Positions 13,799 through 42,975 of a DNA stretch of 64,000 bases are shown one piece after another. Origin of the DNA: Flavobacteriales bacterium. GTDB taxonomy: Bacteria > Bacteroidota > Bacteroidia > Flavobacteriales_E > Vicingaceae. The stretch covers positions 17,956 to 81,955 of the forward strand of contig JABAZP010000032.1 of NCBI GenBank assembly GCA_018608405.1, given 5' to 3'. A program made the position numbers and the translations under genes. Numbering within the stretch: position 1 is the first letter of the stretch; each line of letters starts with the position of its first letter. Below the pieces are notes generated by a model. It searched no databases. It was not told the origin of the DNA and was given only the letters and a program-made list of their open reading frames with translations.

Positions 13799-13910
13799 AA
13801 TGGTGTAAATGAGGGGATTCAAGTTTTTTAACAAAAGTTAAGAATCCAAATGTAGTTATTTTATTTTTCGCAAAAAAATGTTTTGAATTGCGCAAAATAT
13901 TCATATAATG

Positions 13911-16160: not shown

Positions 16161-16678
16161 TTGAAAAATTTGGAATTTGCTTAGAACCTTTAACACTTGA
16201 GACAGCGATGCTTGTTCGAGAGTGGAGAAATTCTCCAAAGGTTAATCACTATATGGATTTTAAAGCGCAAATTACCAAAGAGCAACAAGAAAAGTGGTTT
16301 GAAACGACGTTAACATCTGCCAATGTTTATTTTACAATCCGAAAAGGCTCAACTCCAATAGGGTTAATTCATCTAGATCGGTTTGATGCCAAAAAAAAAA
16401 CGGCTTATGCAGGTCTTTTTATTGGCAACGAAGAATTTGAAGGAACAGGCATTGCTTTTAAAGCTTCAGTTGCGCTTTTGGAATATGCTTTTGAAGAGCT
16501 GAAGTTGGAAATGGTTTATGCAAAAGTGCATGAAGATAATACAGTAGCCATTGCTTATAATAAAAACCTAGGATTTGAAGATGATGGAGAAGAGTCTGGC
16601 CCCTTTCTAAGACTAAAAATTCACTCTATTGCCTTTTATACTAGGCGGACTTATTTGCTGAATTTATTAGCGTTGTAA
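16157..16678 (+). CDS. GNAT family N-acetyltransferase (PseH/RimL-like)
   Basis: LEPLTLETAMLVREWRNSPKVNHYM start typical of PseH-like GNATs. Acetyl-CoA loop EFEGTGIAFKA. ATGA overlap with the GT2 gene. Contains an A10 tract at 16391..16400. Confidence 0.75.
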   Translation: MIEKFGICLEPLTLETAMLVREWRNSPKVNHYMDFKAQITKEQQEKWFETTLTSANVYFTIRKGSTPIGLIHLDRFDAKKKTAYAGLFIGNEEFEGTGIAFKASVALLEYAFEELKLEMVYAKVHEDNTVAIAYNKNLGFEDDGEESGPFLRLKIHSIAFYTRRTYLLNLLAL

Positions 16679-17667: not shown

Positions 17668-18492
17668 ATGCATACTAGAAAGTCAACTATCTACACTTCT
17701 GGTCGTGATTCGTTAAAAACTGCGATCATAAAAGTATGGGAGCATAAGAATTTGATATGGGTTTTTGCAAAAAGAGACATTCAGGTAAAATATTCACAAA
17801 CGTATCTCGGAATAATATGGAGTTTTTTTAAACCGCTGTTAAGTTTATTTATTTACGTTCTTTTTTTCGGAATTGTTTTAAAGTGGCAGACAGGAGAAGT
17901 TCCTTATGCCGTTTATGTTTTGAGCGGGTTAATAGGTTGGAATTTATTTAGCTATATAGTCAATAACGGGGTGGTATCTGTACATGAATCTTCAGATATT
18001 ATAAAGAAAATTTACTTTCCAAAAAGCATTTTGCCTTTTTCTAAAATGTTAGTAGGTATTGTAGATGCATTAATAAGTTTGGTGTTACTACTCCCTCTTA
18101 TGCTCTATTATGAAGTTGGAATGACTTGGAAAATAATTTTTATGCCTCTGGTTTTATTATTTAATGCAATTTGTGGCTTGTCCATTTCATTTTTAATAGC
18201 TGCAATCTCTATAAAAAAGAGAGATATTCTGCAAGTATTGCCTTTTTTAATTCACATGGCGATTTGGTTCACACCCGTATTCCTGTCTACAGATGTTTTT
18301 CCGGAACAACTTCACTTCTTTTTTTCAATAAACCCAATAGCAAACGTTATAGAATTGTGGCGCTGGGTTTTGTTTGATGGAGTTACTTTTCAGTGGGTTT
18401 GGGTGATTAACTTTTTTACTACTGCTATTTTACTTTTAATTGGATTTTATTTTTACACCTATCGAGAAGATAAATTTGCTGATTTTATATGA
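17668..18492 (+). CDS. wzm: ABC-2 type polysaccharide export permease (Wzm/TagG/KpsM family)
   Basis: FAKRDIQVKYSQTYLGIIWSFFKPLL N-terminal signature and six hydrophobic helices. Its stop overlaps the start of the ATPase gene. Confidence 0.85.
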   Translation: MHTRKSTIYTSGRDSLKTAIIKVWEHKNLIWVFAKRDIQVKYSQTYLGIIWSFFKPLLSLFIYVLFFGIVLKWQTGEVPYAVYVLSGLIGWNLFSYIVNNGVVSVHESSDIIKKIYFPKSILPFSKMLVGIVDALISLVLLLPLMLYYEVGMTWKIIFMPLVLLFNAICGLSISFLIAAISIKKRDILQVLPFLIHMAIWFTPVFLSTDVFPEQLHFFFSINPIANVIELWRWVLFDGVTFQWVWVINFFTTAILLLIGFYFYTYREDKFADFI

Positions 18493-19772
18493 ATAATCAA
18501 GTTGCCATATCAGTATCAGGTCTTTCAAAGAGTTACCCTTTGCGCAGTTCGGGTATTGGGGTTAATCAAAACAGAAAGGAAGTTTTTCATGCTTTAAAAA
18601 ACATCTCGTTTGACATCAATAAGGGTGAAAATATAGTAATTATTGGAGCAAACGGAAGCGGTAAAAGTACTTTGTTAAAAATTTTAGCAGGTGTTACAAA
18701 ACCAGGCTCAGGTATTGTCCAAATTCGAGGGAAAGTTGCTAGTATCTTAGATATTGGAGCAGGTTTTCATCCAGAATTAAATGGGCTGGAAAATATTTAT
18801 TTAAATGGGCAACTTTTAGGATTTACAAAAGCAGATATTAAACCAAAAGTTGAAGCAATAATTGAATTTAGTGGAATTGGTCATTTTATAAATGAACCAG
18901 TAAAAAGCTATTCAAGTGGAATGTTTTTACGTTTGGCTTTTAGTATTGTAGTTCATCTAGATTTTGATGTTTACCTGTTTGATGAAGTGCTGAGTGTTGG
19001 GGATGCTGAATTTTTGAAAAAGACTCAACAGTTTATTGCCGAGTTGAATAGTGATCAAAATAGAACAATTGTTTCAGTAACCCATAACATGAACGAAGTT
19101 CATTTCGATAATAAAGTATTTGTGTTAGATCAAGGGAGTTTAGAGACTGGAGATCCTAAATTTCTTTTAGAAAAATATTTCCAAGAAAAAACCATTGACA
19201 AAAATTTTGCAAATTTGGTCACTCATAATTCTAGAGTTAAACAATTTGAAATTGAAACAAATAGTAAGTATATAGAACTACTTGACGTTGAAATATGGCA
19301 AGAAGAGGGAATAAAGAACTTTAGGACAGATTTACCAATTGAAATAAGTTTTACATACAAGAAAAAGTCGAATGAGTTTTATATTGACCCAATGGTTTCA
19401 ATTTCTAATTTCTCAGGAAGAATTATATTAACCACTGCACCATTTGTTAAGGGAGATTTTGACTCAAGTTTAGGCCCCGGGGTAGTAAAGCAAGCAGTTG
19501 TTTTTCCTGCATATTTCTTTAATTCTCAAATTTATTTTATCAGTGTATATTTCATCAGAAACGCTCAAGTTATTTTTAATAATATCTTCGACGAAGAAAC
19601 GGACAATTTAGATGAAATAAAGAAAACTCAAGTTTTCTTGAGCCTTACTAATTTTATTCCTTTCAAATTATTATTGTCAGGCGCCAATACCAATGCTGAC
19701 ATTTCAAACATTGATATAAGTGGGGCTTTATTGGCGGGTTTACATTGGGAAGAAAAGGAGGAAGCTACATGA
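18489..19772 (+). CDS. wzt: Polysaccharide ABC transporter ATP-binding protein with ~190-aa C-terminal extension (Wzt-like)
   Basis: Walker A GANGSGKST, signature YSSGMFLRLAFS, Walker B VYLFDEVLSVGD, H-loop VTHNM. Residues ~235-427 form an extra beta-rich domain where Wzt proteins carry their glycan-terminus-binding module. Confidence 0.9.
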   Translation: MNNQVAISVSGLSKSYPLRSSGIGVNQNRKEVFHALKNISFDINKGENIVIIGANGSGKSTLLKILAGVTKPGSGIVQIRGKVASILDIGAGFHPELNGLENIYLNGQLLGFTKADIKPKVEAIIEFSGIGHFINEPVKSYSSGMFLRLAFSIVVHLDFDVYLFDEVLSVGDAEFLKKTQQFIAELNSDQNRTIVSVTHNMNEVHFDNKVFVLDQGSLETGDPKFLLEKYFQEKTIDKNFANLVTHNSRVKQFEIETNSKYIELLDVEIWQEEGIKNFRTDLPIEISFTYKKKSNEFYIDPMVSISNFSGRIILTTAPFVKGDFDSSLGPGVVKQAVVFPAYFFNSQIYFISVYFIRNAQVIFNNIFDEETDNLDEIKKTQVFLSLTNFIPFKLLLSGANTNADISNIDISGALLAGLHWEEKEEAT

Positions 19773-20473
19773 ATTTAGAATTCACAAAATCTATTCTTGA
19801 TTATATAAAAAGTCCTTCAGACGTAGATAGCTTAACTAAGTTTGAAGAGCTGATTTATAATAAAGAAAGGCTTACGTTGATTGAAAGAAGCTTTTACGAT
19901 AAGTTCATTGTTTTTCTAATTTACAACGATATATCAAAAGTACAAGGAGATGTGGTTAATGTTGGAATATTTAGAGGAGGGTTTTCTCTTTTCTTAAAAG
20001 CTTTCTTTTCAGACTTGCACATTACCTGTCATTTTTGGTTATTCGATTCCTTCATAGGGTTTGAGAACTTGAACCCTGATAGTAAATTAGAGAAGGAGTC
20101 TTTATTGTGGTTTAATTCATACCTAGAAAAAATAAAATTTCCATCTCATCAATCAGTTTCAGAGCTTTTTGAAAAATTTAATATGACTGAAAGTCTTTCA
20201 ATTATTGAAGGGGATATAGAAGAAACATACCGACACTTTGACGGGGATAGTATAAGTATTCTGCATATAGATGTTGATTTTTATTCGCCAACATATAATA
20301 GTTTAAAATTCTTCTATGATTTGGTTTCTATCGGCGGCATAATTGTAATTGATGATTATTATTTAGAGCAAACCAATTGTAAAGAAGCAGTGGATAGTTT
20401 TAGAATAGAAAAAAATATCCAATCACCGTTGATTAAATTGGGTAACTACCAAGTAGGGTGGGTAAAAAGTTAA
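19769..20473 (+). CDS. TylF/MycF-family class I SAM-dependent O-methyltransferase (copy 1)
   Basis: VVNVGIFRGGFSLFL (SAM loop) and LHIDVDFYSPTYNSLKFFYDLVSIGGIIVIDDYY. ATG 19769 forms an ATGA overlap with the wzt stop. The track start 19745 lies inside wzt. Confidence 0.8.
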   Translation: MNLEFTKSILDYIKSPSDVDSLTKFEELIYNKERLTLIERSFYDKFIVFLIYNDISKVQGDVVNVGIFRGGFSLFLKAFFSDLHITCHFWLFDSFIGFENLNPDSKLEKESLLWFNSYLEKIKFPSHQSVSELFEKFNMTESLSIIEGDIEETYRHFDGDSISILHIDVDFYSPTYNSLKFFYDLVSIGGIIVIDDYYLEQTNCKEAVDSFRIEKNIQSPLIKLGNYQVGWVKS

Positions 20474-20474
20474 T

Positions 20475-21341
20475 ATGCAAAAGTTAAAAGACGAATTATC
20501 TAAAATTTATACATCTAAGGTGTTTCAAGATTTTTTGATCAGAAATAATCGTTTAGTTCAATACCATTCAGAGTCTTATAAAGAGTATTTTGGATTCAAT
20601 ATTAATCGTGGGAAAGCTGAAAACATAAAATTTTATATAACTTATTTAAGGCACCTAAGCGAAAAGGAGCTGGTTCAGTTATTAGGATTTAATCCTCCCA
20701 TAAATCTAAAAAAGGCATTCCAAGAGAGGAGTAATAATTATGACCCTAAAAAAGGTGGTACGGGGACAACTTTTACATTTAAATATGATGTTGGAGCAAA
20801 TCGTTTTACAATTGGGGTCTATTTTTTAATAAATAATAGTAAAGGGTGGAATATAGATGATTATCCGTTTTTAGTTAATTATAAAGAACAAACAGGTGAA
20901 GGTGTCGAGTTAAGCAGTGAGTACTTGTTGTATTATGAGTTTGACACTAACCACGAAATGTTAAATACAAGAATCCACTGCTACTCAAAATCCAAAAAAT
21001 TATTCAGTTTTTTAGAAAAAAAGTATGATCAAGTTATACAGCCTTTTACGCATGAGTTAGAAATTTATTTTGATAGAAAATCAATGAATAAGTCTAAGGT
21101 AAATTTATTAATGGACTTAGTAATGTTCAGAGGGCCATATCAAGAGACTAGGTCAGGGAGAGAAATTTCTAATTTTATCAAACGCAACTCCTTTTTAAAT
21201 AAGTTTTTACCTGTTTGCCCAGGTTTTTATAGTGATAGTAGTATTCTGTCAATTTACTTCATGAACCTTACGGCGGAAATAGATAGTCCAATTCACACCT
21301 TTGAAAATTTATTTAATGTATTAAATTATGAATATCAGTAG
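20475..21341 (+). CDS. Hypothetical 288-aa protein with five-fold beta-hairpin periodicity (see findings)
   Basis: Compactly packed ORF (2-bp gap upstream, 14-bp overlap downstream). No signal peptide, no TM helix, no named motif. Confidence 0.6.
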   Translation: MQKLKDELSKIYTSKVFQDFLIRNNRLVQYHSESYKEYFGFNINRGKAENIKFYITYLRHLSEKELVQLLGFNPPINLKKAFQERSNNYDPKKGGTGTTFTFKYDVGANRFTIGVYFLINNSKGWNIDDYPFLVNYKEQTGEGVELSSEYLLYYEFDTNHEMLNTRIHCYSKSKKLFSFLEKKYDQVIQPFTHELEIYFDRKSMNKSKVNLLMDLVMFRGPYQETRSGREISNFIKRNSFLNKFLPVCPGFYSDSSILSIYFMNLTAEIDSPIHTFENLFNVLNYEYQ

Positions 21342-22035
21342 TTTAAGCACAGTTGTAAATAGTATTAAGTTTATCCCTGAGGAGGTATCCGAATTTGACT
21401 TAGGAGATTTTCTTTATTCGGAAGATATCGACATTTTACTGCATAAATCTCAGTTAAATCATTTCTTAGATATTTTAGAATTACACAATGCATATGAAAT
21501 AGAAGGAGATATTGTGGAATGCGGTGTTTGGAGAGGAGCATCTGCTGCCATTCTCAAATCAAGTGTAAATGCAATATCCCCTAGCAAAAAAATGTTTTTG
21601 TTTGATTTTTTTGGCGAAGACGTAACTTTAAATCTCGATAAATTAACGGTCAAAGAAAAGTTATTAATCAATAGGGTTGATGGTAAAAAAATTAAGCTAC
21701 CGAACTTGGAGAGTGTTAAACAACAACTAGAAAAGTTTAAGTTGCTAGATGATTCGGTATATTTTGTTCAAGGTGACGTAATTGAAACCACCCGGAAAAG
21801 CCAACTGGGTAAAATCTCGCTTCTACATCTTGATTTAGATTTTTCTTACACAACAGACTTTGTTTTAAACCAACTTTATGACAGAGTTGCAAAAGGGGGA
21901 ATAATTGTAATTAATGATTATAACATGCAAAGTTTAGATTGTAAGAGAGCTGTGGATGAATTTATGAATCAGCATCAAATTAAAAATAAACTCATCGAAG
22001 TGGGCAGTCATCTTGCTTATTGGATAAAGGATTAA
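21328..22035 (+). CDS. TylF/MycF-family O-methyltransferase (copy 2)
   Basis: IVECGVWRGASAAILK and LHLDLDFSYTTDFVLNQLYDRVAKGGIIVINDYN. Confidence 0.8.
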   Translation: MNISSLSTVVNSIKFIPEEVSEFDLGDFLYSEDIDILLHKSQLNHFLDILELHNAYEIEGDIVECGVWRGASAAILKSSVNAISPSKKMFLFDFFGEDVTLNLDKLTVKEKLLINRVDGKKIKLPNLESVKQQLEKFKLLDDSVYFVQGDVIETTRKSQLGKISLLHLDLDFSYTTDFVLNQLYDRVAKGGIIVINDYNMQSLDCKRAVDEFMNQHQIKNKLIEVGSHLAYWIKD

Positions 22036-22038
22036 AAT

Positions 22039-23616
22039 ATGCAGGTTCCAATAGCATTCTTTATTTACAAAAGACCTGAGTTAACCAAAGCGGTTTTCCA
22101 GCAAATTATTGCATCTCAATTAAAAGACGTATTTGTGTTTGCTGATGGACCAATTAATGACTTAGAAAAAGAGAAGTGCGAAGAAACTAGGGCAATTATA
22201 GACCAGTTTCAAGACGGTAAAATGCGACTCCACAAACATTACCAAGAAGACAACATTGGGCTGTATGAAAACATCAAGCAAGGATTGAGTTTAGTATTCA
22301 CTCAATTCGATCAAGTAATAATTTTAGAGGATGATTGTATGCCTCATCAATCGTTTTTTACATTCTGTTTAAAGAATTTAGAAAAGTTTAGATACGATCA
22401 TCACATAATGCAAATTAGCGGAACTTCATTGTTGAATGATAGTGATGGAGGCTTTAAGTCACTAGAGTCAAAGTATAGTTTGCCAAATTGGGGTTGGGCT
22501 ACTTGGAAAAGAGCTTGGGAAAAATTTAATCCAGAATTTACCACCTTCAAAACGAACGAGGACTTTTTTACAAAAAAATTAATTAATGACGATAGTTTAC
22601 CAATAATTAAAGCGTTAAGCTCATTAAGTTATGGAAATAGAAATTCTTGGGATGTTCAATGGATGGCTGATTTGTGGATAAATGGTGGACATACGATCCT
22701 ACCAAGCACTAATTTGATAACTAACCTGGGTAATGGTGAGGGCTCTAGTTATATGCCTGAGTCAAGCCCTTTCTGCATTCCAACTCCCAACCAGGAATTG
22801 GAACTCGTTTCGAATATATATGAGAAAATTTCTATTGAGCAAGAGTCAAGGATTGAAAGTTCCGTAGCAGACCTTATTGATGGATTTATTAGTGCAAGTC
22901 AAGATGTTTTTTCTCTTACAAAGCAAATTATAAAACACATAGAGCCAAGAGGATATAAAGAAAAATATAGTTCATTAGAGGAGCTAAAAGAGGATTTGAT
23001 TCCTTTACCAAAATTCACCTTATTACCTAAGTCTTTTTTCAATTTGTTTTTAGAAAAATATTCTAAAAAGGATCCTATTTTTAATGGAAACTGGGTTCAA
23101 GTTGGTTGTTGGAAAGGCGGGAGTTCTTTATTCTTAGCCTCCTTGAGGGAAGAAGCTAGAGCAGCGGGAAAATTATTTATAATTGATACATTTGGAGATA
23201 TACCTACGAGTAATCTGCATTGGGAAAAGGATATTGCCTTTGTAAATTATTTTCAAATGAATTCTCCAATTTCAAGTTACAAATTAGAAGTCGAAAGCCT
23301 TTTAAGAAAATATGACTTACTTGAAGCTTCGAGAATAATAGATACTACAATTGAATCTTTATTACCTGAGCAATTACCAGAACAAATAAGTTTTGTTTTT
23401 ATAGACTTAGATTTTTACGAACCAACTTTGTTAAGTCTAGAGAAACTATATAATTCAATTGTGAAAAATGGCGTTATATTAATCGATGATTATTATTCAC
23501 CATTCTTTAATTGCAGAGAGGCGGTTGATCACTTTTTTACCGTAAAAAGGGAAAAAAGAGAAGTAAGTTTTGAGCAGTTTTCGAGTAATATTTTAATGAT
23601 TCACAAACATGGTTAA
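22039..23616 (+). CDS. Bifunctional fusion: GT-A (GNT-I/HlpA-like) glycosyltransferase domain plus TylF-type methyltransferase domain (copy 3)
   Basis: The N-terminal half (VPIAFFIYKRPELT...FADGP...ILEDDCMP...LPNWGWATWKRAW) is paralogous to the next gene. The C-terminal half has WVQVGCWKGGSSLFL and VFIDLDFYEPTLLSLEKLYNSIVKNGVILIDDYY. Confidence 0.75.
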   Translation: MQVPIAFFIYKRPELTKAVFQQIIASQLKDVFVFADGPINDLEKEKCEETRAIIDQFQDGKMRLHKHYQEDNIGLYENIKQGLSLVFTQFDQVIILEDDCMPHQSFFTFCLKNLEKFRYDHHIMQISGTSLLNDSDGGFKSLESKYSLPNWGWATWKRAWEKFNPEFTTFKTNEDFFTKKLINDDSLPIIKALSSLSYGNRNSWDVQWMADLWINGGHTILPSTNLITNLGNGEGSSYMPESSPFCIPTPNQELELVSNIYEKISIEQESRIESSVADLIDGFISASQDVFSLTKQIIKHIEPRGYKEKYSSLEELKEDLIPLPKFTLLPKSFFNLFLEKYSKKDPIFNGNWVQVGCWKGGSSLFLASLREEARAAGKLFIIDTFGDIPTSNLHWEKDIAFVNYFQMNSPISSYKLEVESLLRKYDLLEASRIIDTTIESLLPEQLPEQISFVFIDLDFYEPTLLSLEKLYNSIVKNGVILIDDYYSPFFNCREAVDHFFTVKREKREVSFEQFSSNILMIHKHG

Positions 23617-24466
23617 CACTCCAGTAGTAATTTTTTTATACAAGAAATTGGCTTCTGTTGAGATAATTTTAAATAAGCTTTGTAAAAGCGCTCCATCAAC
23701 GGTTTACATTGTAATGGATGGGCCTGAAGACCTTAAAACTAGAGAAAGGCAGAACGAAATAATGGAGGTAATTAGCATATTTAACTTTACCGTCCCTTTT
23801 CAAATTATTCGTCCAAAAGTTCATTTGGGAATCAGAACAATCATTCAATTTGGATTAAACAAGGTTTTCGAAACTGAAGAGCGCGCAATAATTCTAGAAG
23901 ATGACACTTTACCTTCACCCCTGTTTTTCAACTTTTGTGAAAAGATGTTGAACCAATTCGAGAATGAATCAACCGTTGGCTGTATAAACGGATCTAATCT
24001 AGGAATTGAAGCAGGGAAACAACACTACTTTATGTCCAAGTTAAGTCTGCCCTTTTGGGGCTGGGCAACTTGGAAAAACCGATGGGAACAATTTCCAGAG
24101 AAGTATGATTTTTGGTTGAAATTTAGGGCACAACAATCAAATCATGAGATATTTGAAGAAAGCACTCTCGCTATATTTGATCGCTTTGTGAAGAAAGATA
24201 AATCGTGGGATGTAAAGTGGGCGATGTATTTATTAGCTAGTTCTTTAAGAACTGTTTTCCCGGGTGAAAATTTAATTTCAAACGTAGGGTTTACCGGCGA
24301 AGCAACTTTTACGAACATTTCTAACTCTAGTTTTTCCAATTTGGCTGCAGAAGAATCTACCTTTGGAGAAGAAGATTTTAAGGAAGAAAAACAGTTGGAA
24401 GATAAATATTTATTAAAAACTAAAGAACTTATTCAGGAAATGGCAAGAAGAGATACCAAACTATGA
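23609..24466 (+). CDS. GT-A fold glycosyltransferase-like protein (GNT-I/HlpA-like), paralog of the N-terminal half of 22039..23616
   Basis: TPVVIFLYKK...VMDGP...IILEDDTLP...LPFWGWATWKNRW...SWDVKW aligns with the upstream fusion protein. Confidence 0.7.
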   Translation: MVNTPVVIFLYKKLASVEIILNKLCKSAPSTVYIVMDGPEDLKTRERQNEIMEVISIFNFTVPFQIIRPKVHLGIRTIIQFGLNKVFETEERAIILEDDTLPSPLFFNFCEKMLNQFENESTVGCINGSNLGIEAGKQHYFMSKLSLPFWGWATWKNRWEQFPEKYDFWLKFRAQQSNHEIFEESTLAIFDRFVKKDKSWDVKWAMYLLASSLRTVFPGENLISNVGFTGEATFTNISNSSFSNLAAEESTFGEEDFKEEKQLEDKYLLKTKELIQEMARRDTKL

Positions 24467-25335
24467 AACGACCAATTTTTAAGAATCAAGAACACGACAA
24501 GCTATATTTAAGGAATGGATATATCCAGTCGAATTTACTTTCGTCTAAGCAAGTTGAGTATCTCTTGGGAAAAATTTTAGAACTTAAACCTGACGATAAT
24601 TTTTCGCCAGATCGGAAGGGAGCTTCGAACTATCATTGTTCCTTTTTAGATACAAATGAAGAATATAAAAAAGCATCTAACAGGCTATTCAAATCTGTTT
24701 TTAATCCAATAGTTGATACCCTTTTCCACAACTACGAAATTTGGAATGCCAATCTATATGTAAAACAACCCGGCAAAGGGAAGTTTGAGATTCATCAGAA
24801 CTGGACTCATGTGGAAAAAGAAGAACAGACAACATTTACGATTTGGTGCCCATTAGTTGATACATCAATTGAAAACGGAACATTAGCTTTGGTAGAAGGT
24901 AGCCATAAGATAATAGCTGACCTTGCAACATTGAATGTTCCTTATTATTTTAAAAACTTCGAAGCTAAACTTTTAGAGAAATATCTTAAGCCAATGCCTT
25001 GTTCAGCAGGAGATGCTATAATTTTTGAAGATGGAGTGATTCATTATTCAGATGTAAATAAATCTGATAAGCCTAGGTATGCATTACAAATATTGATTGG
25101 ACCTAAAGAAGTGAACCCTGTCTACTATTATTTTGATGAGAGTAAAAACGAATTTGAAGTATTTGAGATTAATGAAGATTTTTTCTTGAAAAATAATTAC
25201 ACGACTTTTCATAAAAGACCTGCAGATCATGTTTCAAAAGGAAGCATAAAGAATGAAAATAGGTTAATTGAAGAAGAAGGATTTGTTGAGGCTTTGAAAA
25301 ATGGAAATCTAAGAAGAGAAACTCTTTATTCATAG
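24463..25335 (+). CDS. PhyH-like Fe(II)/2-oxoglutarate dioxygenase homolog with HxN in place of HxD
   Basis: Aligns by eye with the two paralogs at 34751 and 35838: FEIHQNWTHVE vs MLHQDWNVVDE, ENGTLALVEGSHK vs RNGCIQVLKGSHK, GDAIIFEDGVIH vs GDAIVFRHSVIH. Confidence 0.65.
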   Translation: MKRPIFKNQEHDKLYLRNGYIQSNLLSSKQVEYLLGKILELKPDDNFSPDRKGASNYHCSFLDTNEEYKKASNRLFKSVFNPIVDTLFHNYEIWNANLYVKQPGKGKFEIHQNWTHVEKEEQTTFTIWCPLVDTSIENGTLALVEGSHKIIADLATLNVPYYFKNFEAKLLEKYLKPMPCSAGDAIIFEDGVIHYSDVNKSDKPRYALQILIGPKEVNPVYYYFDESKNEFEVFEINEDFFLKNNYTTFHKRPADHVSKGSIKNENRLIEEEGFVEALKNGNLRRETLYS

Positions 25336-25367: not shown

Positions 25368-27524
25368 ATGAGTAAGGTATTAAATATTACAAACGCAGAT
25401 TTTTTGCAGAACCCTTATATTACTTATGGGTCGCTTAGAAAATTAGGCGCCGTTCATTTTTTGCCAGAAAACAATACGTGGTTGGTCGTTGACTTTGAGG
25501 AGATCAAACAAATCCTGGATAATCCTAGCTTGTTCTCATCTGAAGGCGAAAATGGATTTGATCCGATTTTGCTAAATTGTGACCCTCCGAAACATACACA
25601 TCACAGAAAGATACTAACTGGTGATGGAGCACCTTTCTCTTCTAAGCGAATCTCAAAATTGGAAACAGACAATAGAGAAATTGCACAAGCCCTGCTACAA
25701 CCATTGCTTGAAAATACTAGTATCGAAGTTTTAAGTGACTTTGCACTTCCATTCTCCTCTTTAGTGATTCTAAATTTGTTGGGAATAAACACTCAAAATA
25801 ACGCGGCACTAAAAGCTTGGTCTCAGTCAGTAGTGGCAAATAAACCGAATAGTAAATCTGATTTTGCCGAGCAAAAATGGGAACAGTTGAAACCAATTGT
25901 GAAACAATGGATTAACGATGCAAATAAAAACCCTGAAGGCGAAGGGTTAAGTGAAATCATTTTTCACTCCTTTTCTCAAAAAAATTTTACAGACGAGGAT
26001 ACTCTTAACCTAGTCAAGGTATTGTTGCTCGGAGGTAACGAGACAACACCAAATTTAATTTCTTCTGCCTTGTTGATTTTGTTGAATAATAGTGAACTGC
26101 TTAACGAGGTAAGAAACAATTATGACTTAATTGATGCGGTCATAAACGAAACGCTGAGGTTGGAAACTCCAACCCAAATTATTCATCGTACAACAAGAGA
26201 AAATGTTACTATTGGAAAGAAGCTAATTCCAAAAGGTAGCCTAGTAAGTTTAGCTCTAGGAGCTGCAAATAGAGATCCTAAAGTTTTTGAGAACCCTCAT
26301 AAATTTGATATTAATAGTAAAGAAAGAAAAATACTTTCTTTCGGTTTTGGTCCTCATTATTGTTTGGGTGCTCATTTGGCAAAGCAAGAAGCACAAATTA
26401 CGCTGGAATTGTTATTGAAGAGTTTTCCAGATCTGCGCTTGGATAAACAGGAGCATTTAGTGTATAAGTCTTCTAGCTTTGTGCGAGGGTTGGAAAGATT
26501 AACTATTAAGCTTTCTGAAAATAAGTTTCATAAGCCTATTTCAACAGTTAAAAAAGAGGCAGTAGAGTTGTTGAAGAATTCAACATTGCCAAACGGAGAA
26601 TTTCCAACTTATGAGTATTATCCAAACACTGAAGAGTTAAGGCCAAAAGGATGGCACATTACAGCACCGTCTCCTTTTGTGCACGCCAATGTAGTTTTAT
26701 CATTGATTAATTTGAAGAATATAGGATTGGAATCAGTCATTGTGAAAGGAACTGAATTTATTCAATCTCAAAAAGAATACGGTGACGTTTGGCGGTTTTG
26801 GCAATTTGGCTCTGCTGCCAACAACGTTCCACCAGATGCGGACGATACGGCAATTTGCTCTGCAGTATTGGAGTCGGTTGGGAAGAAACTAGAGAATAGA
26901 AAGTTATTGGAAGCTAATATTGAAGCCAATGGAGTTCTAAAAACATGGATCTCTCCTAAGCTCAGTGATTTTTTTATGAGACCAAGGCTGAGCTACAAAT
27001 GGTGGAGAGAAAAGCAATATTACCAGCCAACGGTTGATGCCAATTTGTTGAATTTAAATGATTTTGAGTTGGGAGTTATGGCGAATACTCTCCTGTATTT
27101 AGGTGAAAATAGCATTACAAAACCAAGCGTTGAACTTTGTATAGATTTATGGAAGGATAACAAGGGTACCAATCATTTCTACAATAACGATATGGTTATT
27201 GCCTATCATATAGCCAGGGCCTATAAACGAGGAATAGCTTCTTTTGAGAAACTGTCAGCAGATATTTTGGAACGAATTGAAATTCGGTTCAACACCCTAT
27301 CTTTTCCGGAATTACTATTAGCAGGCTTGTGTATTAAATACTTTAAGTTAACTACTAACATGGGAAATCGAATTGCTGATAGAGTTAAAAGTAGTGTTGT
27401 TGAAGAAGACTTTGTATTTCCGCACTTTGGGTATTTTACTTCAAAAGATAGAAATTATGTGGCAGGTTCGCCCATGTTATTGGTATGTTGGTTTTTAGAG
27501 TTAAGCGAAGAATGGGACTGTTAA
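25368..27524 (+). CDS. Cytochrome P450 fused to a C-terminal squalene-hopene-cyclase-like (class II terpene cyclase-like) domain
   Basis: P450 signatures: I-helix LLLGGNETTPN, ExxR in NETLRLE, heme loop FGFGPHYCLGAHLA (Cys codon 26361..26363). After residue ~395 the helical-repeat domain carries a QW-like KGTEFIQSQKEYGDVW motif and PPDADDTAICSAVL (DADDTA at 26835..26852). Confidence 0.8.
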   Translation: MSKVLNITNADFLQNPYITYGSLRKLGAVHFLPENNTWLVVDFEEIKQILDNPSLFSSEGENGFDPILLNCDPPKHTHHRKILTGDGAPFSSKRISKLETDNREIAQALLQPLLENTSIEVLSDFALPFSSLVILNLLGINTQNNAALKAWSQSVVANKPNSKSDFAEQKWEQLKPIVKQWINDANKNPEGEGLSEIIFHSFSQKNFTDEDTLNLVKVLLLGGNETTPNLISSALLILLNNSELLNEVRNNYDLIDAVINETLRLETPTQIIHRTTRENVTIGKKLIPKGSLVSLALGAANRDPKVFENPHKFDINSKERKILSFGFGPHYCLGAHLAKQEAQITLELLLKSFPDLRLDKQEHLVYKSSSFVRGLERLTIKLSENKFHKPISTVKKEAVELLKNSTLPNGEFPTYEYYPNTEELRPKGWHITAPSPFVHANVVLSLINLKNIGLESVIVKGTEFIQSQKEYGDVWRFWQFGSAANNVPPDADDTAICSAVLESVGKKLENRKLLEANIEANGVLKTWISPKLSDFFMRPRLSYKWWREKQYYQPTVDANLLNLNDFELGVMANTLLYLGENSITKPSVELCIDLWKDNKGTNHFYNNDMVIAYHIARAYKRGIASFEKLSADILERIEIRFNTLSFPELLLAGLCIKYFKLTTNMGNRIADRVKSSVVEEDFVFPHFGYFTSKDRNYVAGSPMLLVCWFLELSEEWDC

Positions 27525-28564
27525 ACGAAATTTTTACAAGGCTTCGGTCTTTTCTGCTCTATCACAGCATGTTGTTTATCAATTACATTCTGTTGATTTA
27601 TTTTCTGAAATCTATTCCTGTTGATTTTGAGGTTCTGGGCTCGTTAGTTTTAAGTTATATTCTAACAGGTGTTGGGGCCTTTTTGCTAAACGATTATTAT
27701 GATAAGAAAGTAGATTTAAAAGCAGGGAAGTCAAATTTAGCAGAGAAAGCAAATTCTTATTTTATTGGATTTATAGTCTTGTTGGGTTTTTCTGTTTCGT
27801 TTTTTTTAGTGAATAGAATTTCAGAAAATGCAGGTATTTTGCTGTTGGTGCAATTTGCGGCGCTCTTAGCATATTCCCATCCAAGGATTAGATTAAAATC
27901 AAAACCAATTTTCGGAATTATTGCGGATTCAATTTATGCTTATATAATTCCGGTGCTCTTGTTATTTGTCGTTTATAAAATTGAAATAGCGGATCCAAAA
28001 TACCTCGCCTTTTTACTTTTTAACTTTAGCATCGGGCTTAGAGACATTCTGCTTCACCAGAAGAAAGATGAATTGAACGACCTAAAATCTGGGATCAATT
28101 CATTTGCTATTCGATATAAAAGTAAGGTAAACACATTAGTTTATATTTCAGAATTTACGGCTAGTTTGAGTTTGTGCTTTTTTCTAATGTTTGGTTTTTG
28201 GAAACTGGAAAGTCAGACTTACGTATTAGGAATAGGGGTGGCATATTTATTTCTATTATTGTTCGAAATTTTTAGAGTTCAAAAATCAATAGAGAACAAC
28301 TACTTAATACGATTTTATATTGTTATCAGTACATTCATTTTGGGTTATTGGCTTTTGAATGAAAACCTATATGCCTATTTAATACTACTAATTCATCCTT
28401 ATCTATATCAGTTTGTTGTTCAAATTTTTCAACTTATAAATCAATTAAAAATTATGATTTCCGTTGTAGTGAATTATTCATTGTATTATTCATTTAAATT
28501 AATGGGCAGAGATTTAAAAAAGAAACCATTGTATAAAAAACATGAGAAGAAAAATTCTAATTAG
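27485..28564 (+). CDS. UbiA-superfamily membrane prenyltransferase
   Basis: Eight to nine TM helices. First Asp-rich motif LLNDYYDKKVDLKAGK (27689..27715, NDxxDxxxD) and second motif HQKKDELNDLKSG. An alternative start at ATG 27512 would overlap the P450 stop by 13 bp. Confidence 0.75.
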   Translation: MLVFRVKRRMGLLNEIFTRLRSFLLYHSMLFINYILLIYFLKSIPVDFEVLGSLVLSYILTGVGAFLLNDYYDKKVDLKAGKSNLAEKANSYFIGFIVLLGFSVSFFLVNRISENAGILLLVQFAALLAYSHPRIRLKSKPIFGIIADSIYAYIIPVLLLFVVYKIEIADPKYLAFLLFNFSIGLRDILLHQKKDELNDLKSGINSFAIRYKSKVNTLVYISEFTASLSLCFFLMFGFWKLESQTYVLGIGVAYLFLLLFEIFRVQKSIENNYLIRFYIVISTFILGYWLLNENLYAYLILLIHPYLYQFVVQIFQLINQLKIMISVVVNYSLYYSFKLMGRDLKKKPLYKKHEKKNSN

Positions 28565-29528
28565 CTGGCTTTTTTCTATGCTCGTAATTTTCGTTTCTTG
28601 TGAAAAACACAATGAATTAAAAATTAACGATGAAGTTGTTTTAAAACGTTGTACTATTCAGCTTTTTCAAAAAGATAAATTTGCAACAAATTTTGGATCA
28701 ATTGATTTTGTCTATACCGGAGATACTATAAAAAGGAATGTGGATTTAGATTCGAAAGACTTATTAGCGCAATTGAATAACGAATTAAAAAACTTTGACA
28801 CGCTAGACGTGAACAACAAAACTGTTTTATACTTGAAGTCTTTATTCTTGGCCAATTTTGTGCATGCTGCATTTAGTCATCAATTTTTGGGAACAGAATT
28901 AGGTTTGGCTAACGATAGCTTAATTCGAAGTAATTGGGAGGACTATTCATTGGAAGAACAATTTGATTTTGGTAACAAAAATGAAGTGGCTTTTTCATGT
29001 TGGACTAGAACAAAATTTTATTTACAATTGACTCATATGTTACTAGAGCTAAAAGGTAGAGACACTTCCATTGAAAATGTACATACCTATCCGATACTCA
29101 ATATATATGGTTCTGAATATTTAGTAGATCCGTCTGATCCAGCTGTGTTTATAAGTTCTACAACTAATAAAATCATAAAATTCAATGAATTAAAAAGAAG
29201 CTCGGATGTTGTTATTTATAAATTGAATTACAACTTTGGAACTTCTCACTTTATTTTTTCAAATAGTTTTATGAATCGTATTCAACCAGAAGGGAATAAT
29301 TTGAAAGATCAAATTTTAGGGTATTTAGCTCTTAATCAAGAATTAGTGTTAAATAAGGTCCCTGCCTGCTTTAACCCGCACTACAAAAAGAGATGGGAAA
29401 TTTCATATTTAGATGGCAAAAACAATGCGCTAGCTGTTTCGTTATTTGGCAGAAATCTTGGAACGTTTTTGACTCCACAAAATTTTAAGGAAACCTATTT
29501 TGGAGCCAATTGTAATAGCTTGAATTAA
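28542..29528 (+). CDS. Predicted lipoprotein of unknown function
   Basis: MRRKILISWLFSMLVIFVSC with a lipobox-like VSC. 328 aa with no recognisable catalytic motif. Overlaps the UbiA gene end by 23 bp. Confidence 0.55.
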   Translation: MRRKILISWLFSMLVIFVSCEKHNELKINDEVVLKRCTIQLFQKDKFATNFGSIDFVYTGDTIKRNVDLDSKDLLAQLNNELKNFDTLDVNNKTVLYLKSLFLANFVHAAFSHQFLGTELGLANDSLIRSNWEDYSLEEQFDFGNKNEVAFSCWTRTKFYLQLTHMLLELKGRDTSIENVHTYPILNIYGSEYLVDPSDPAVFISSTTNKIIKFNELKRSSDVVIYKLNYNFGTSHFIFSNSFMNRIQPEGNNLKDQILGYLALNQELVLNKVPACFNPHYKKRWEISYLDGKNNALAVSLFGRNLGTFLTPQNFKETYFGANCNSLN

Positions 29529-29534
29529 AGTATT

Positions 29535-31319
29535 ATGTGTGGAATTGTAGGACATATTAAAAGAGACGGAAAAGTTGACCAAGATATTTTTCGCAAAATG
29601 CTCAAAACCATTGAGCATAGAGGCCCTGACGGTGAAGGGGTCTTTATTTCGTCTGATAGTAAAAGAGCATTGGGCCACCGAAGGTTATCCTTCTTAGACC
29701 TTTCAGAATTGGGAAAACAACCTATGAGTAATTCTGAGGCAACCGTTTGGGTAAGTTTCAATGGGGAAATTTACAATTATCTTGAACTAAAAGAAGAACT
29801 GAGAAACGGCTATGAATTTATTACGGGAAGTGATACGGAGGTAATTTTGGCGGCATATCAAGCGTGGGGGATGGATTTTGTGAATCGCTTAAAAGGTATG
29901 TTTGCCATAGCATTACTTGACGAGAAGAAAGAGTTGTTGCATTTGATTCGAGATCGATTTGGGATAAAGCCACTGTATTATGGCGTTCAAAATAACGAGC
30001 TTGTTTTTGCTTCAGAATTGAAAGCAATTATGGAGTCAAAAGTATTCCCTAAAGAGCTGAACAAAAGTGCAATTTCGGATTATTTTGTCTATCGGTATAT
30101 TCCTTCTCCTAAAACCATTTGGGAGGGAATAAATAAACTTCCTCCTGCAAATTATATCACTATTGATTTAAATGACTTGTCTGAGACGACGGTTTGCTAT
30201 TGGGAATTAACATCTTCGAATGAAAAAGCGGAGATTAAAAGTTTAGCAATTGAAACAGAAGAGATTTTAAAAAATTCGGTAAAACAGCATGCACGAGCTG
30301 ATGTTCCTATTGGTTCTTTTTTAAGTGGAGGGTATGACAGTAGTGCTTTGGCATTGTGGATGAAGGAAGAAGGGAAAGCTCCAAATACTTTTTCAATAGG
30401 GTTTGAAAATTGGGAGAAAAGCGAGCATTATTATGCTAAAACAGTTGCTGATTTTTTGGCGTTAGAGAATAACGCTGTTGTTGCTACTGCAGAGAGTCTG
30501 AATTTATTGAAACGAATGCCTGAGGTATATGACGAACCGATTGCAGATATTTCAATTGTACCAACATACATGGTGAGCGCTTTGGCTAGAAAAGAGGTAA
30601 AGGCAGTGTTTAGTGGCGAAGGAGCCGATGAAATTTTTGGCGGCTATACGTGGCAACATGATTTTTTTAATAAAACATACAATAACGGTTTATTGCAGAA
30701 GGTTAAAAATATTTTTAAACCAAAGAATCCTGTTGATTTTTATGCACAATCAATGGCAATGGGTTGGTTCGATTCGCAAGAGTTAAAAAAAATGTTACAT
30801 CCAGATTTACATGTATCAATTCCAAAAGATGTGCATTGGTTTTATAGGCAAAACTTCAGAAAGGATTTAAGTCCTTTTAAAGCCATACAACACATGGACA
30901 TCAAATGTTTTATGGGAGAATTGGTGCTTACGAAAGTGGACCGAGCCAGCATGGCAAACTCATTAGAAGTGAGAGTGCCTTTTTTGGACCATCAACTTTA
31001 TGAGAAAATATTCAGTATCGAAGAGAACCATTACATTGACCAAAATCAGACAAAGAAGGTGCTTTTTGAAACATTGAAAGATAATTTACCAAGTGAAATA
31101 ATAGAACGCAAAAAGCAAGGTTTTGTAGGGCCGGATCAATATTACATGAATATTGAATTTTACAGGAAAGAACTAGGAGAGAGCAACCTCGTGAAGCAAA
31201 ACATTATTCGCAAAGAGTATATAGACGAATTACTGCAAGAATCCTATAATTGGAAGCTCTGGAAAATAGTTGTTTTTGAAAAATGGTTTACCCATTGGGT
31301 TGTGAACTTTGAAGAATAA
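29535..31319 (+). CDS. Asparagine synthase (glutamine-hydrolysing) family amidotransferase (AsnB/WbpS-like)
   Basis: N-terminal nucleophile MCGIVG, GATase class II domain, PP-loop SFLSGGYDSSALA. 594 aa. Confidence 0.9.
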   Translation: MCGIVGHIKRDGKVDQDIFRKMLKTIEHRGPDGEGVFISSDSKRALGHRRLSFLDLSELGKQPMSNSEATVWVSFNGEIYNYLELKEELRNGYEFITGSDTEVILAAYQAWGMDFVNRLKGMFAIALLDEKKELLHLIRDRFGIKPLYYGVQNNELVFASELKAIMESKVFPKELNKSAISDYFVYRYIPSPKTIWEGINKLPPANYITIDLNDLSETTVCYWELTSSNEKAEIKSLAIETEEILKNSVKQHARADVPIGSFLSGGYDSSALALWMKEEGKAPNTFSIGFENWEKSEHYYAKTVADFLALENNAVVATAESLNLLKRMPEVYDEPIADISIVPTYMVSALARKEVKAVFSGEGADEIFGGYTWQHDFFNKTYNNGLLQKVKNIFKPKNPVDFYAQSMAMGWFDSQELKKMLHPDLHVSIPKDVHWFYRQNFRKDLSPFKAIQHMDIKCFMGELVLTKVDRASMANSLEVRVPFLDHQLYEKIFSIEENHYIDQNQTKKVLFETLKDNLPSEIIERKKQGFVGPDQYYMNIEFYRKELGESNLVKQNIIRKEYIDELLQESYNWKLWKIVVFEKWFTHWVVNFEE

Positions 31320-42971: not shown

Positions 42972-42975
42972 CTCA

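Follow-up and report, generated by a model that had tools for sequence, protein, structure and literature searches.

In the window, the 64,000-nucleotide stretch of DNA from a Flavobacteriales bacterium that we analysed, a cytochrome P450 and a predicted class II terpene-cyclase-like domain are encoded by a single gene (Table 1). An initial annotation of this DNA had described one uninterrupted 718-codon reading frame; we re-read the frame, and it is open, with all motifs at the positions given in Table 1. The fusion gene lies between genes for a PhyH-type dioxygenase and a UbiA-family prenyltransferase, in a locus that also encodes a Wzm/Wzt glycan exporter. The locus encodes no prenyl diphosphate synthase and no flavin epoxidase, and the window has no tRNA genes. 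A promoter and terminator scan from 13.5 to 33 kb found no more sites than in shuffled sequence, and has no bearing on operon structure.

Table 1. Features of the locus, with their positions in the window.
Feature	Position	Strand	Basis or remark
Wzm (ABC-2 permease) and Wzt (ATPase with C-terminal extension), glycan ABC exporter	17668..19772	+	
PhyH-type Fe(II)/2-oxoglutarate dioxygenase, immediately upstream of fusion gene	24463..25335	+	Pfam PhyH
Fusion gene: P450, linker, predicted mono-beta class II terpene cyclase	25368..27524	+	single ORF, 718 codons plus stop
Cytochrome P450 domain, soluble class I CYP107/109-like, aa 1-385	25368..26522	+	Pfam PF00067 at 1e-30
I-helix oxygen-activation motif GGNETT, aa 222-227	26031..26048	+	nearly invariant among fusions
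K-helix ExxR (ETLR), aa 261-264	26148..26159	+	E261, R264 conserved in fusions
Heme-binding loop FGFGPHYCLG, aa 325-334	26340..26369	+	Cys332 codon TGT 26361..26363
Interdomain linker, aa 384-387, predicted flexible	26517..26528	+	pLDDT <50 in full-length AF2 model
Predicted class II terpene cyclase beta domain (alpha/alpha barrel), aa 389-718, uncurated family	26532..27521	+	AF2, Foldseek, family profile
Degenerate QW-like element KGTEFIQSQKEYGDVW, aa 460-475	26745..26792	+	family consensus comparison
DADDTA, predicted general-acid motif, aa 490-495 (D490, D492, D493, T494)	26835..26852	+	aligns with AsDMS DLDTT
Second acidic pair D565-F-E567	27060..27068	+	about 90% D/E in family
UbiA-family prenyltransferase, 8 TM-like segments	27485..28564	+	Pfam UbiA; overlaps fusion gene end
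Predicted lipoprotein, function unknown	28542..29528	+	signal peptide with lipobox; orthologs in L001-L004
AsnB-type glutamine amidotransferase, recurrent neighbour of cyclase-UbiA pair	29535..31319	+	
Polytopic membrane protein, TPRs at its C-terminus (GT-C candidate); final gene of locus	36696..39173	+	

The N-terminal domain is an intact P450. Its sequence contains the heme-thiolate signature FxxGxxxCxG, the I-helix pattern [AG]Gx[DE]T[TS] and ExxR, and it scores 107.3 bits against PF00067, for which the cut-off is 22.8. The earlier statement that residues 1 to ~385 carry all P450 hallmarks is therefore correct. The best match in the PDB is 5ofq (E = 3e-53), followed by 4rm4, PikC, BioI and Vdh, and 272 P450 sequences there match at E <1e-20. 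C332 is nearly invariant across the fusions. There are no ferredoxin or ferredoxin reductase genes between 14.2 and 48 kb of the window; the redox partners of the P450 are presumably encoded elsewhere.

The C-terminal domain, which had been described as unrelated to P450, matches nothing in Pfam, NCBIfam or the PDB when searched alone, and profiles were needed to place it. The AF2 model of residues 389-718 (pLDDT 85.5, pTM 0.89) is an all-helical barrel of about 14 helices. Its top Foldseek match is the beta domain of the cyclase AsDMS (TM 0.72, E = 2e-9), followed by mono-domain SHC-like cyclases, MstE, SHC, CPS and SsDMS, and all matches with E <1e-3 are class II cyclases or prenylcyclases. 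Modelling and fold comparison, which the initial annotation had put forward as a check, thus point to a class II cyclase. Profile searches of the PDB agree: a four-sequence profile matched AsDMS at 9e-6, and a profile of 114 family members matched AsDMS at 1.7e-26, SHC at 4.6e-15, AstC at 1.5e-9, CPS at 7e-6 and MstE at 6e-4. Pfam SQHop_cyclase_C (PF13243) is matched by 60 of 114 standalone members; the window protein matches no curated cyclase model.

The motif DADDTA, part of a longer stretch, PPDADDTAICSAVL, that spans 26829..26870, had been read as the DxDD(T)A general-acid motif. In the profile alignment, D490-x-D492-D493-T494 falls on the D-x-D-T-T motif of AsDMS, the middle Asp of which is a proven general acid (PMC12232559). 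D492 is hence the predicted proton donor. Among 154 relatives in an unbiased set, D490 is conserved in 96%, D492 in 97%, D493 in 92% and T494 in 82%, and DxDD is kept both in standalone proteins and in fusions without a P450. Many aromatic residues are also conserved, giving the family an aromatic-rich core, and the acid residues would be expected to line an enclosed hydrophobic cavity. Upstream of DxDD there is indeed a QW-like element, as had been suggested, in a degenerate form that is found family-wide (consensus [KR][AG]xxFLxx[EQ]xExxGxWR[YF]W); the strict QW pattern occurs in 21 of the 154 members but not in the window protein. Together, fold, profile and motif alignment support the central claim of the initial annotation, that nature has joined a P450 and a class II terpene-cyclase-like domain in one protein.

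According to the initial annotation, the class II cyclases characterised so far use a beta-gamma didomain. That view is out of date, since a single beta domain suffices for catalysis in AsDMS, MstE and the Sorangium mono-beta cyclase TC-beta (PMC12232559; 10.1101/2025.09.20.677545). Of the options it offered, a minimal or new cyclase architecture or a binding module, a minimal cyclase is favoured, but the minimal architecture is not new in itself.

By profile and fold, the closest relatives are the HAD-TC-beta drimenol synthases, AsDMS of Aquimarina spongiae and the fungal AstC. They share with the window protein a single beta domain without a gamma domain, an acid motif at the same position, and a flexible linker to a fused enzyme that processes the cyclase product; AsDMS and the window protein both come from marine Bacteroidota. 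In contrast, their N-terminal partner is a HAD-like phosphatase and not a P450 monooxygenase, their motif is DxDTT where the window protein has the canonical DxDDT, and identity is only about 15-17%. The drimenol cluster contains FPPS, AraC and ABM genes (10.1101/2025.09.20.677545), whereas the window locus has UbiA, PhyH, Wzm/Wzt and glycosyltransferases. Few terpene cyclases fused to a product-processing enzyme are known (10.64898/2026.08.29.748031), and in the literature that could be searched we came across no fusion between a P450 and a class II cyclase.

Other known cyclases resemble the window protein in different ways. The mono-beta sesquiterpene synthase of Sorangium cellulosum (WP_129572421) is standalone, with DxDVT at a similar position; its size is presumably similar to that of the ~340-aa standalone members of our family. 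We looked for a link between the family and this enzyme through members with DxDVT, of which there are two, and through cluster names, and found no accession or name that connects them. The Sorangium enzyme needs no partner domain to cyclise FPP (10.1101/2025.09.20.677545), proof that such a domain can catalyse on its own. MstE of Scytonema is likewise a beta-only class II cyclase, of meroterpenoids, and its substrate is made by a UbiA-type prenyltransferase (PMC12232559; PMC12414744), a gene pairing that the window locus shares. However, it is far more distant than AsDMS (Foldseek E = 2e-3, TM 0.57; profile E = 6e-4), uses a DxD variant of the motif (PMC12414744), and has neither a P450 fusion nor a glycan-export context.

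An exhaustive HMMER search shows that the domain belongs to a family of 1,478 cluster representatives at 50% identity. A word-indexed homolog search had returned four proteins, and the near-uniqueness that this implied was a sensitivity artefact. Most members are standalone proteins of ~340 aa labelled “hypothetical”, and others are named simply “cytochrome P450”; the family is large and has no name in any curated model. The module is spread over Bacteroidota, Acidobacteriota, Verrucomicrobiota, Planctomycetota, Actinomycetota and Alphaproteobacteria, and over Cyanobacteria, Gemmatimonadota, Armatimonadota, Chloroflexota and Saccharimonadales. The P450-TC architecture recurs in Bacteroidota, as a survey for the same fusion, proposed earlier, established: it is found in four other Bacteroidota genomes (L001-L004) and in at least nine further cluster representatives from genomes and metagenomes, at 33-71% identity and with an alignable linker (among them P0005, P0007, P0008, P0009, P0014, P0021, P0028 and P0031). 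Relatives from several phyla have other fusions, namely TC-P450, GT4-TC-P450, TC-UbiA, UbiA-TC, UbiA-TC-PhyH, UbiA-TC-TPR, PhyH-TC and acyltransferase-TC; PhyH is fused to the cyclase in P0027, P0079, P0045 and P0047. These independent fusions in both orders, and a tandem array of three cyclase/P450 units (L032), show that the cyclase and its partners are functionally coupled.

The gene neighbourhood is similarly conserved. At 29 other loci, we counted genes within 5 kb of the cyclase gene and found UbiA at 21, P450 at 12, PhyH at 9 and Wzt at 9, with UbiA fused to the cyclase in four cases; an AsnB-type glutamine amidotransferase is present at 6 of the loci. In six further neighbourhoods, drawn from a motif-unbiased representative set, UbiA adjoins the cyclase gene every time; the standalone members in that set are accompanied by Wzt in all three cases and also by Wzm in two. 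Glycosyltransferases recur at cyclase loci, those of the three standalone members included, and in four loci (L034, L035, L008 and L011) the cyclase gene is directly downstream of wzt. Hence, a position next to UbiA in a glycan-export locus, which the initial annotation considered unexpected, is a conserved property of the whole family. There are variations: a kinase-like gene separates cyclase and UbiA in L035, and some loci have no glycan genes within the sequence available, such as the P0023 contig, where the order is MT-TC-UbiA-AsnB. We found no further unknown gene that is universally conserved in the module, since one candidate, unk285, proved to be a GT2-like paralog, and another, the lipoprotein, is conserved only in Bacteroidota fusion loci. 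TPR modules, present in the last gene of the window locus, are also fused to UbiA-TC proteins elsewhere, and L034 encodes an 858-aa TPR protein.

What is the function of the fusion protein? We think it probable that it is a bifunctional class II cyclase and monooxygenase that acts with UbiA on an isoprenoid destined for an exported glycoconjugate. D492 would start ring closure by protonating either the terminal C=C bond or an epoxide of an isoprenoid chain that sits in the aromatic-lined barrel. The class I P450, on its short flexible linker, would oxygenate the same molecule, either by hydroxylating the cyclised product or by preparing the chain for cyclisation, for example by epoxidation. 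The full-length AF2 model (pLDDT 82.5, pTM 0.57), built to see whether the P450 covers the active site of the cyclase in the manner of a gamma or HAD domain, places no confident interface between the two domains, so channelling between P450 and cyclase is at most a possibility. The fusion enzyme would form a working unit with the translationally coupled UbiA prenyltransferase, in which both Asp-rich motifs are conserved and whose nearest types are chlorophyll synthase, homogentisate phytyltransferase and DGGGPS; the upstream PhyH dioxygenase would be part of the same unit. UbiA would join a prenyl diphosphate of the C15-C20 type to an acceptor, following the bacterial meroterpenoid logic of “prenylate, then cyclise”. 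In this scheme, fold, homology, motif conservation, fusions and neighbourhood are observed, whereas catalysis, step order, chain length and the glycan connection are inferred.

There is precedent for UbiA acting before a class II cyclase in the atolypene pathway (PMC11600129). The atolypene (AtoE/AtoD), brasilicardin, phenalinolactone, tiancilactone and longestin clusters combine a class II cyclase, UbiA and an oxygenase, in some cases with a polyprenyl synthase, as does the module described here, and several of their end products are glycosylated terpenoids. Cyclisation in clusters of this type follows prenyl transfer (PMC11600129). Unlike the window protein, with its DxDDT, AtoE-like cyclases have a non-canonical xxxE(T/S)xE motif and protonate epoxides made by flavin epoxidases (PMC11600129), and they are found in actinomycete natural-product clusters rather than in Wzm/Wzt glycan loci.

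In many phyla the module adjoins Wzm/Wzt and glycosyltransferase genes, and for this reason the most likely fate of the oxidised cyclic terpenoid is to become part of an exported glycoconjugate, as an aglycone or anchor or as a chain-end cap, a link drawn solely from gene neighbourhood. As a cap, it could terminate the chain and be read by the C-terminal domain of Wzt, analogous to the methyl-phosphate cap that WbdD makes on ABC-transporter-dependent O-antigen. As in E. coli O9a, which has a WbdD-type chain terminator, a modifying module comes right after wzt; the parallel extends only to position and logic, as WbdD has no sequence relationship to the cyclase module, and we offer the comparison as a hypothesis and not as a classification. 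To our knowledge, a terpenoid glycan cap has never been described. Alternatively, the glycan could be assembled on the terpenoid, which would then serve as a dedicated cyclic aglycone or anchor. The broader proposal, that cyclase, P450, UbiA and sometimes PhyH constitute widespread, unrecognised machinery for putting an oxidised cyclic terpenoid on Wzm/Wzt-exported glycans, is tentative, and we regard it as possible rather than probable.

An alternative to prenylation before cyclisation is the reverse order, which we consider unlikely. The cyclase would act first, on free FPP or GGPP, to give a bicyclic diphosphate as AsDMS and SsDMS do; UbiA would use this cyclic diphosphate as prenyl donor, or ionise it like the UbiA-type synthase PtmT1, and the P450 would hydroxylate the product. 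Indeed, AsDMS, AstC and Sorangium TC-beta, to which the family is closest among characterised enzymes, each cyclise FPP (PMC12232559; 10.1101/2025.09.20.677545), and in L010 a polyprenyl synthase gene lies directly upstream of the cyclase gene, overlapping its start. In AsDMS, the diphosphate of FPP is contacted by R370, a diphosphate-binding residue, and by R415, Y416 and R503 (PMC12232559). Our alignment of the 114-member profile, which replaced a first mapping of R370 taken from the edge of the four-sequence profile alignment, puts R370 on a conserved Asp, D565, and R415 on a variable position that is H603 in the window protein, both of which argue against the reverse order. AsDMS Y416/Y417 align with the aromatics F604/Y605, and R503 corresponds roughly to R695, a position that is R/K in only 46% of the family. 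Some family members nonetheless retain basic residues close to where AsDMS holds the diphosphate (column 143, R/K in 62%; column 308, R/K in 46%; the window protein has K531 and R695), and Mg2+ could link diphosphate to the conserved acidic pair D565/E567, as it does to acidic residues in beta-gamma cyclases. With the AsDMS contacts only partly conserved, and R370 replaced by Asp, the substrate and step order proposed above are provisional. However, in the best-studied bacterial pathway with UbiA and a class II cyclase, cyclisation comes after prenyl transfer (PMC11600129), and the same is true of MstE (PMC12232559). TC-UbiA fusions are compatible with either order.

We consider it very unlikely that the C-terminal domain is a non-catalytic module that binds an isoprenoid or polyprenyl lipid and presents it to the fused P450, as the initial annotation had suggested for its second option. 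Such a role could account for the lack of a match between the domain alone and any curated cyclase family, a tethered oxygenase needs a hydrophobic substrate, and alpha/alpha toroids also serve as binding domains (cf. the weak TED_complement matches seen in the Pfam search of family members). Nevertheless, the 92-97% conservation of DxDD in roughly 150 divergent members, including those that are standalone or fused to partners other than a P450, is expected of a catalytic acid and not of a binding site. Furthermore, the conserved aromatic-rich core is typical of carbocation chemistry, and the nearest relatives are active cyclases.

It is more improbable still that UbiA is the polyprenyl-phosphate phosphoribosyltransferase (PPPRS) of a “three-component” pentofuranose side-chain system, consisting of a UbiA-type PPPRS, a flippase and a GT-C, with the P450-cyclase an unrelated neighbour or a modifier of the polyprenyl carrier lipid. 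UbiA-type PPPRS enzymes do occur in O-antigen loci (PMC11127046), and the genes of the window locus include a GT-C candidate that carries TPRs and a GtrB-like GT2. Yet no MATE, SMR or GtrA-type flippase was found in the window locus, and in many lineages UbiA and the cyclase domain form one polypeptide, which means that they are not adjacent by chance. With a profile of the UbiA orthologs, chlorophyll synthase is matched at 7e-8 and DPPRS at only 0.01, and 13 of 17 orthologs hit the NCBIfam model for ChlG but just one of 17 that for DPPRS, whereas true PPPRS enzymes share about 31% identity with DPPRS (PMC11127046). On these profile and model scores we rejected UbiA as a PPPRS or DPPR synthase. 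Lastly, that a missed stop codon or frameshift merged two genes is effectively refuted. We found no support for it; P450 and cyclase domains are separate adjacent genes in some lineages. The identical protein is found on 22 independent public contigs, and the fusion is kept at 33-71% identity, with an alignable linker, across many genomes and metagenomes.

With UbiA, oxygenases, glycosyltransferases and Wzm/Wzt as its constant companions, the cyclase family points to isoprenoid chemistry inside the surface-polysaccharide loci of many phyla, and so suggests an undescribed link between terpenoids and cell-surface glycans. Such chemistry has no place in the standard models of how ABC-transporter-dependent glycans are assembled. 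If the proposed terpenoid-on-glycan machinery is real, its products would be a new class of bacterial surface glycoconjugate. Work on these enzymes may lead to new terpenoid scaffolds, to cyclase-oxygenase biocatalysts that are compact and self-contained, and perhaps to a new glycan cap or lipid anchor.

The initial annotation had read the protein as a P450 fused to a class II terpene cyclase-like domain. Our analysis confirms the observation and supports this interpretation, with evidence from fold, acid motif, profile homology and fusions; by the first three of these, the C-terminal domain (TC) belongs to the class II terpene cyclase superfamily. Residues 389–718, searched alone against Pfam, NCBIfam and PDB sequences, gave zero matches. 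An AlphaFold model of the domain, with four homologs as input, is confident and all-helical (pLDDT 85.5, pTM 0.89), and its top ten Foldseek matches in the PDB are the cyclase β domain of AsDMS, the HAD-TC-β drimenol synthase of Aquimarina spongiae (TM 0.72, E 2e-9). Next come 345-aa SHC-like mono-domain cyclases, MstE (a Scytonema monodomain meroterpenoid cyclase), squalene-hopene cyclase, Rv3377c, ent-CPS and SsDMS; hence, class II terpene cyclases make up essentially all of the matches listed. A four-sequence profile of the domain finds AsDMS at E 9e-6, and a 114-member profile finds AsDMS (1.7e-26), SHC (4.6e-15), the fungal relative AstC (1.5e-9), CPS (7e-6) and MstE (6e-4). Pfam SQHop_cyclase_C is matched by 60 of the 114 standalone relatives. 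The suggestion that characterised class II cyclases use a βγ didomain does not hold generally: the mono-β enzymes MstE, AsDMS and Sorangium TC-β, the last of which cyclises FPP, are catalytically self-sufficient (PMC12232559; 10.1101/2025.09.20.677545). Hence, ~330 residues suffice for an active cyclase.

The acid motif is indeed of the DxDD general-acid type, as proposed. In profile alignments, D490-A-D492-D493-T494 aligns exactly with D-L-D-T-T of AsDMS, where experiments support the middle Asp (AsDMS D323) as the general acid (PMC12232559). Among the best 154 family members, chosen without reference to the motif, conservation is 96% for D490, 97% for D492, 92% for D493 and 82% for T494, and the motif is kept in every domain architecture of the family. 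The same sample conserves R617 (99%), a second acidic pair, D565/E567 (~90%), and the aromatic residues F412, F437, F464, W475, W478, W527, Y577, Y605, Y613, Y689 and F690. The reported QW-like element is real but degenerate; its strict pattern occurs in 21 of the 154 members and is absent from the window protein.

Coordinates of features in the window and in other loci (L031, L032, L034)
Feature	Position	Strand	Remarks
Surface protein	981..4340	-	1,119 aa; cadherin repeats, CHU_C
Surface protein	4451..13834	-	3,127 aa; laminin-G/ConA-like domains, Por_Secre_tail
Glycan locus	~14.2-39.2 kb		
GtrB-like GT2	15246..16160		C-terminal TM helices as in GtrB-type polyprenyl-phosphate sugar synthases
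ORF	16667..17575	-	302 aa
Three TylF-type O-methyltransferase domains	19745..23616		directly after wzt
Protein with fused TylF and GT2-like domains	22039..23616		525 aa
GT2-like paralog	23609..24466		
PhyH-type Fe(II)/2OG dioxygenase	24463..25335		
P450-TC fusion ORF	25368..27524	+	718 codons and stop
GGNETT	26031..26048	+	P450 motif
ETLR	26148..26159	+	P450 motif
FGFGPHYCLG	26340..26369	+	P450 motif; Cys332 codon TGT, 26361..26363
KGTEFIQSQKEYGDVW	26745..26792	+	QW-like element
DADDTA	26835..26852	+	cyclase acid motif
PhyH-type dioxygenase	34751..35605		
PhyH-type dioxygenase	35838..36695		
Polytopic TPR protein	36696..39173		825 aa
ATP-dependent DNA ligase with preceding ORF	41967..44565		ligase 537 aa; preceded by overlapping 334-aa ORF without family match
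B12-binding rSAM and cyclase P0004	L031:74-3848		
Tandem cyclase/P450 units	L032:3675-12340		metagenomic
rSAM gene near cyclase P0154	L034:12851-13975		

The fusion ORF is single and unbroken, and all motif coordinates first assigned to it were correct on re-check. Residues 1–385 are a P450, as claimed (Pfam PF00067, 107 bits against a cut-off of 22.8), and among solved structures it comes closest to soluble, CYP107/109-type P450s of class I, such as 5ofq, 4rm4, PikC, BioI and Vdh. A frameshift or stop artefact can be dismissed: the same exact protein is found on 22 public contigs, and the architecture recurs. A survey for the same fusion found the P450-then-cyclase order in four other Bacteroidota genomes, from a member of the Vicingaceae (L001), of the Flavobacteriales (L002), of Flavobacterium (L003) and of the Bacteroidia (L004), and at least eight more cluster representatives, 33–71% identical, have the P450-cyclase architecture. 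In the full-length model both domains are well folded (pLDDT 82.5), linker residues 384–387 have a pLDDT below 50, and the pTM of 0.57 lends no support to a fixed P450-cyclase interface. The model suggests tethered domains of the kind found in AsDMS, whose covalent linkage nonetheless confers a kinetic advantage (10.64898/2026.08.29.748031).

When 1.84 billion representatives were searched exhaustively with HMMER, 1,478 proteins reached E ≤ 1e-3 and 267 reached E ≤ 1e-30, whereas a word-indexed search had returned only four cyclase-domain proteins. At the level of sequence, this shows that the predicted cyclase domain defines a large family. A P450 is fused to 18 of the 154 members. Fusions in relatives, from N- to C-terminus, include TC-P450 (P0051, P0078, P0086, P0102), GT4-TC-P450 (P0080, P0145 and probably P0124; loci L025, L026, L033), UbiA-TC-PhyH (P0045, and P0047 with an extra TPR), UbiA-TC-TPR (P0053), TC-UbiA (P0087, P0111, P0143, and P0116 with an extra TPR), PhyH-TC (P0027, P0079), and TC with a FabD-like acyltransferase in both orders (P0152, P0138). 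These predicted fusions point again and again to the same set of partner enzymes. P0089 and P0101 add two further fusion contexts: a 1,619-aa, apparently secreted protein whose repeats are of the He_PIG, Big_9 and Golvesin_C types, and a GDSL lipase.

The genomic position of the fusion had been called unexpected. It is instead the family's conserved home, and the window locus matches the family pattern. In 29 other loci, from a genome scan seeded on the motif, the genes at most 5 kb from the cyclase include UbiA in 21 (fused in 4), P450 in 12 (fused in 6), PhyH in 9 (fused in 1), Wzt in 9 and AsnB in 6 (neither ever fused). Because the scan was motif-seeded, we added neighbourhoods from the unbiased representative set, and UbiA is present in all six. 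Gene orders include Wzm-Wzt-TC-PhyH-UbiA(+GT)-...-TPR protein (L034), Wzt (weak Wzt_C match)-TC-kinase-like-UbiA-GT4-GT4 (L035), GT2 ... TC-UbiA ... Wzt-Wzm-GT4-GT4-GT2-GT4 (L036), GT2-GT4-GT4-TC-P450-TC-P450-...-TC-P450 fusion-UbiA-MBOAT (L032), GT4-TC-P450, P450, unknown gene, UbiA (L033), and MT-TC-UbiA-AsnB (the P0023 contig). Edaphobacter (L010) has a gene for a polyprenyl diphosphate synthase that extends into the start of the cyclase gene, with PhyH, UbiA, Wzm/Wzt and GT4 after it.

The third of the three tandem units in L032 is the TC-P450 fusion, and a sulfotransferase gene lies between units. The first two cyclases, with DADDS and DADDT motifs, are mutually 41% identical and of a more distant type that the family HMM missed. 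Such tandem units may perform iterative or multi-site cyclisation and oxidation. The radical SAM (rSAM) gene in L031 is upstream of P0004, a standalone cyclase like P0154; downstream of P0004, a small gene of unknown function is a homolog of unk260 in L032.

The window's glycan locus lies on one strand, apart from the 302-aa ORF, which has a weak, sub-threshold Phage_ssDNA_bind match and is kept at 73–76% identity in L001 and L002. The locus begins with KAS III-like, GtrB-like GT2, GNAT acetyltransferase, Wzm and Wzt (the glycan ABC exporter) genes, continues with three TylF methyltransferase domains, GT2-like proteins, PhyH, P450-TC and UbiA, and ends with a lipoprotein, AsnB, putative GT-A proteins, two adjacent PhyH paralogs of the first and a polytopic TPR protein. 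PhyH also occurs joined to the cyclase domain in other phyla. The GT2-like part of the 525-aa fusion protein has its paralog in the next gene. Chain-end methylation systems exist for ABC-transporter-dependent O-antigens, and the TylF arrangement after wzt is reminiscent of them. With at least 12 TM segments, YNMDDE in an early loop and TPRs at its C-terminus, the polytopic protein is a candidate GT-C of the TMTC/PMT-like kind; in other loci, UbiA-TC proteins carry fused TPR modules as well. The two surface proteins encoded directly upstream of the locus carry type IX secretion C-terminal sorting domains and so confirm that the host belongs to the Bacteroidota. Some Bacteroidota anchor T9SS cargo to surface glycan. 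Downstream of the locus are genes for pirin, nitroreductase, aldo-keto reductase, GpsA and an HgmA-like dioxygenase, as well as the DNA ligase.

What might the UbiA protein contribute? PRPP-dependent polyprenyl-phosphoribose synthases are known from O-antigen “three-component” systems (PMC11127046). The UbiA ortholog profile argues against such a function, since DPPRS is matched only at 0.01, after chlorophyll synthase (7e-8) and DGGGP synthase (1e-4). Of the 17 orthologs, 13 match the NCBIfam model for ChlG, 13 that for “prenyltransferase”, 10 that for homogentisate phytyltransferase and 1 that for DPPRS. The two Asp-rich motifs, N69-D70-xx-D73-xxx-D77 and D195-xxx-D199, persist in all 17. 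Together, these results argue for a putative transferase of a C15–C20-type prenyl diphosphate to an O- or C-nucleophile.

From homology, fold, motif conservation, fusions and synteny, we infer a pathway in which UbiA would join a prenyl chain to an acceptor, D492 would protonate the distal double bond, and at least one ring would close in the aromatic barrel. The tethered P450 and a PhyH dioxygenase would then oxygenate the terpenoid; alternatively, the P450 might pre-oxidise the chain. Glycosyltransferases, one of which is fused directly to TC-P450 in some lineages, would tie the product into sugar chemistry, and its export would fall to Wzm/Wzt. MstE and the atolypene pathway are precedents for prenylation before cyclisation (PMC12232559; PMC11600129), and this order fits the conserved D565 at the position of the diphosphate-binding R370 of AsDMS. 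Less probably, the cyclase would act before UbiA, with FPP or GGPP as substrate in the manner of AsDMS: some basic residues remain near the head-group site, and D565/E567 could bind diphosphate via Mg2+.

The HAD-TC-β drimenol synthases are the nearest characterised relatives of the window cyclase, which lies outside their family because it lacks the HAD domain and has another motif variant and other head-group residues. It also differs from MstE-type and AtoE-type cyclases in sequence or motif. In the literature searched, beyond which subscription journals may hold prior work, neither a P450-class II cyclase fusion nor this cyclase family nor a terpene cyclase module within Wzm/Wzt loci is described. 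We regard the fusion as a new domain architecture and its cyclase as a subfamily, so far without a name, of a known class of enzymes. That these loci make a new type of terpenoid-modified surface glycoconjugate is a tentative proposal, a realistic possibility though less likely than not. The link of the module to glycans is strong as a genomic association, and the predicted terpenoid could serve the glycan as a cap, an anchor or an aglycone.
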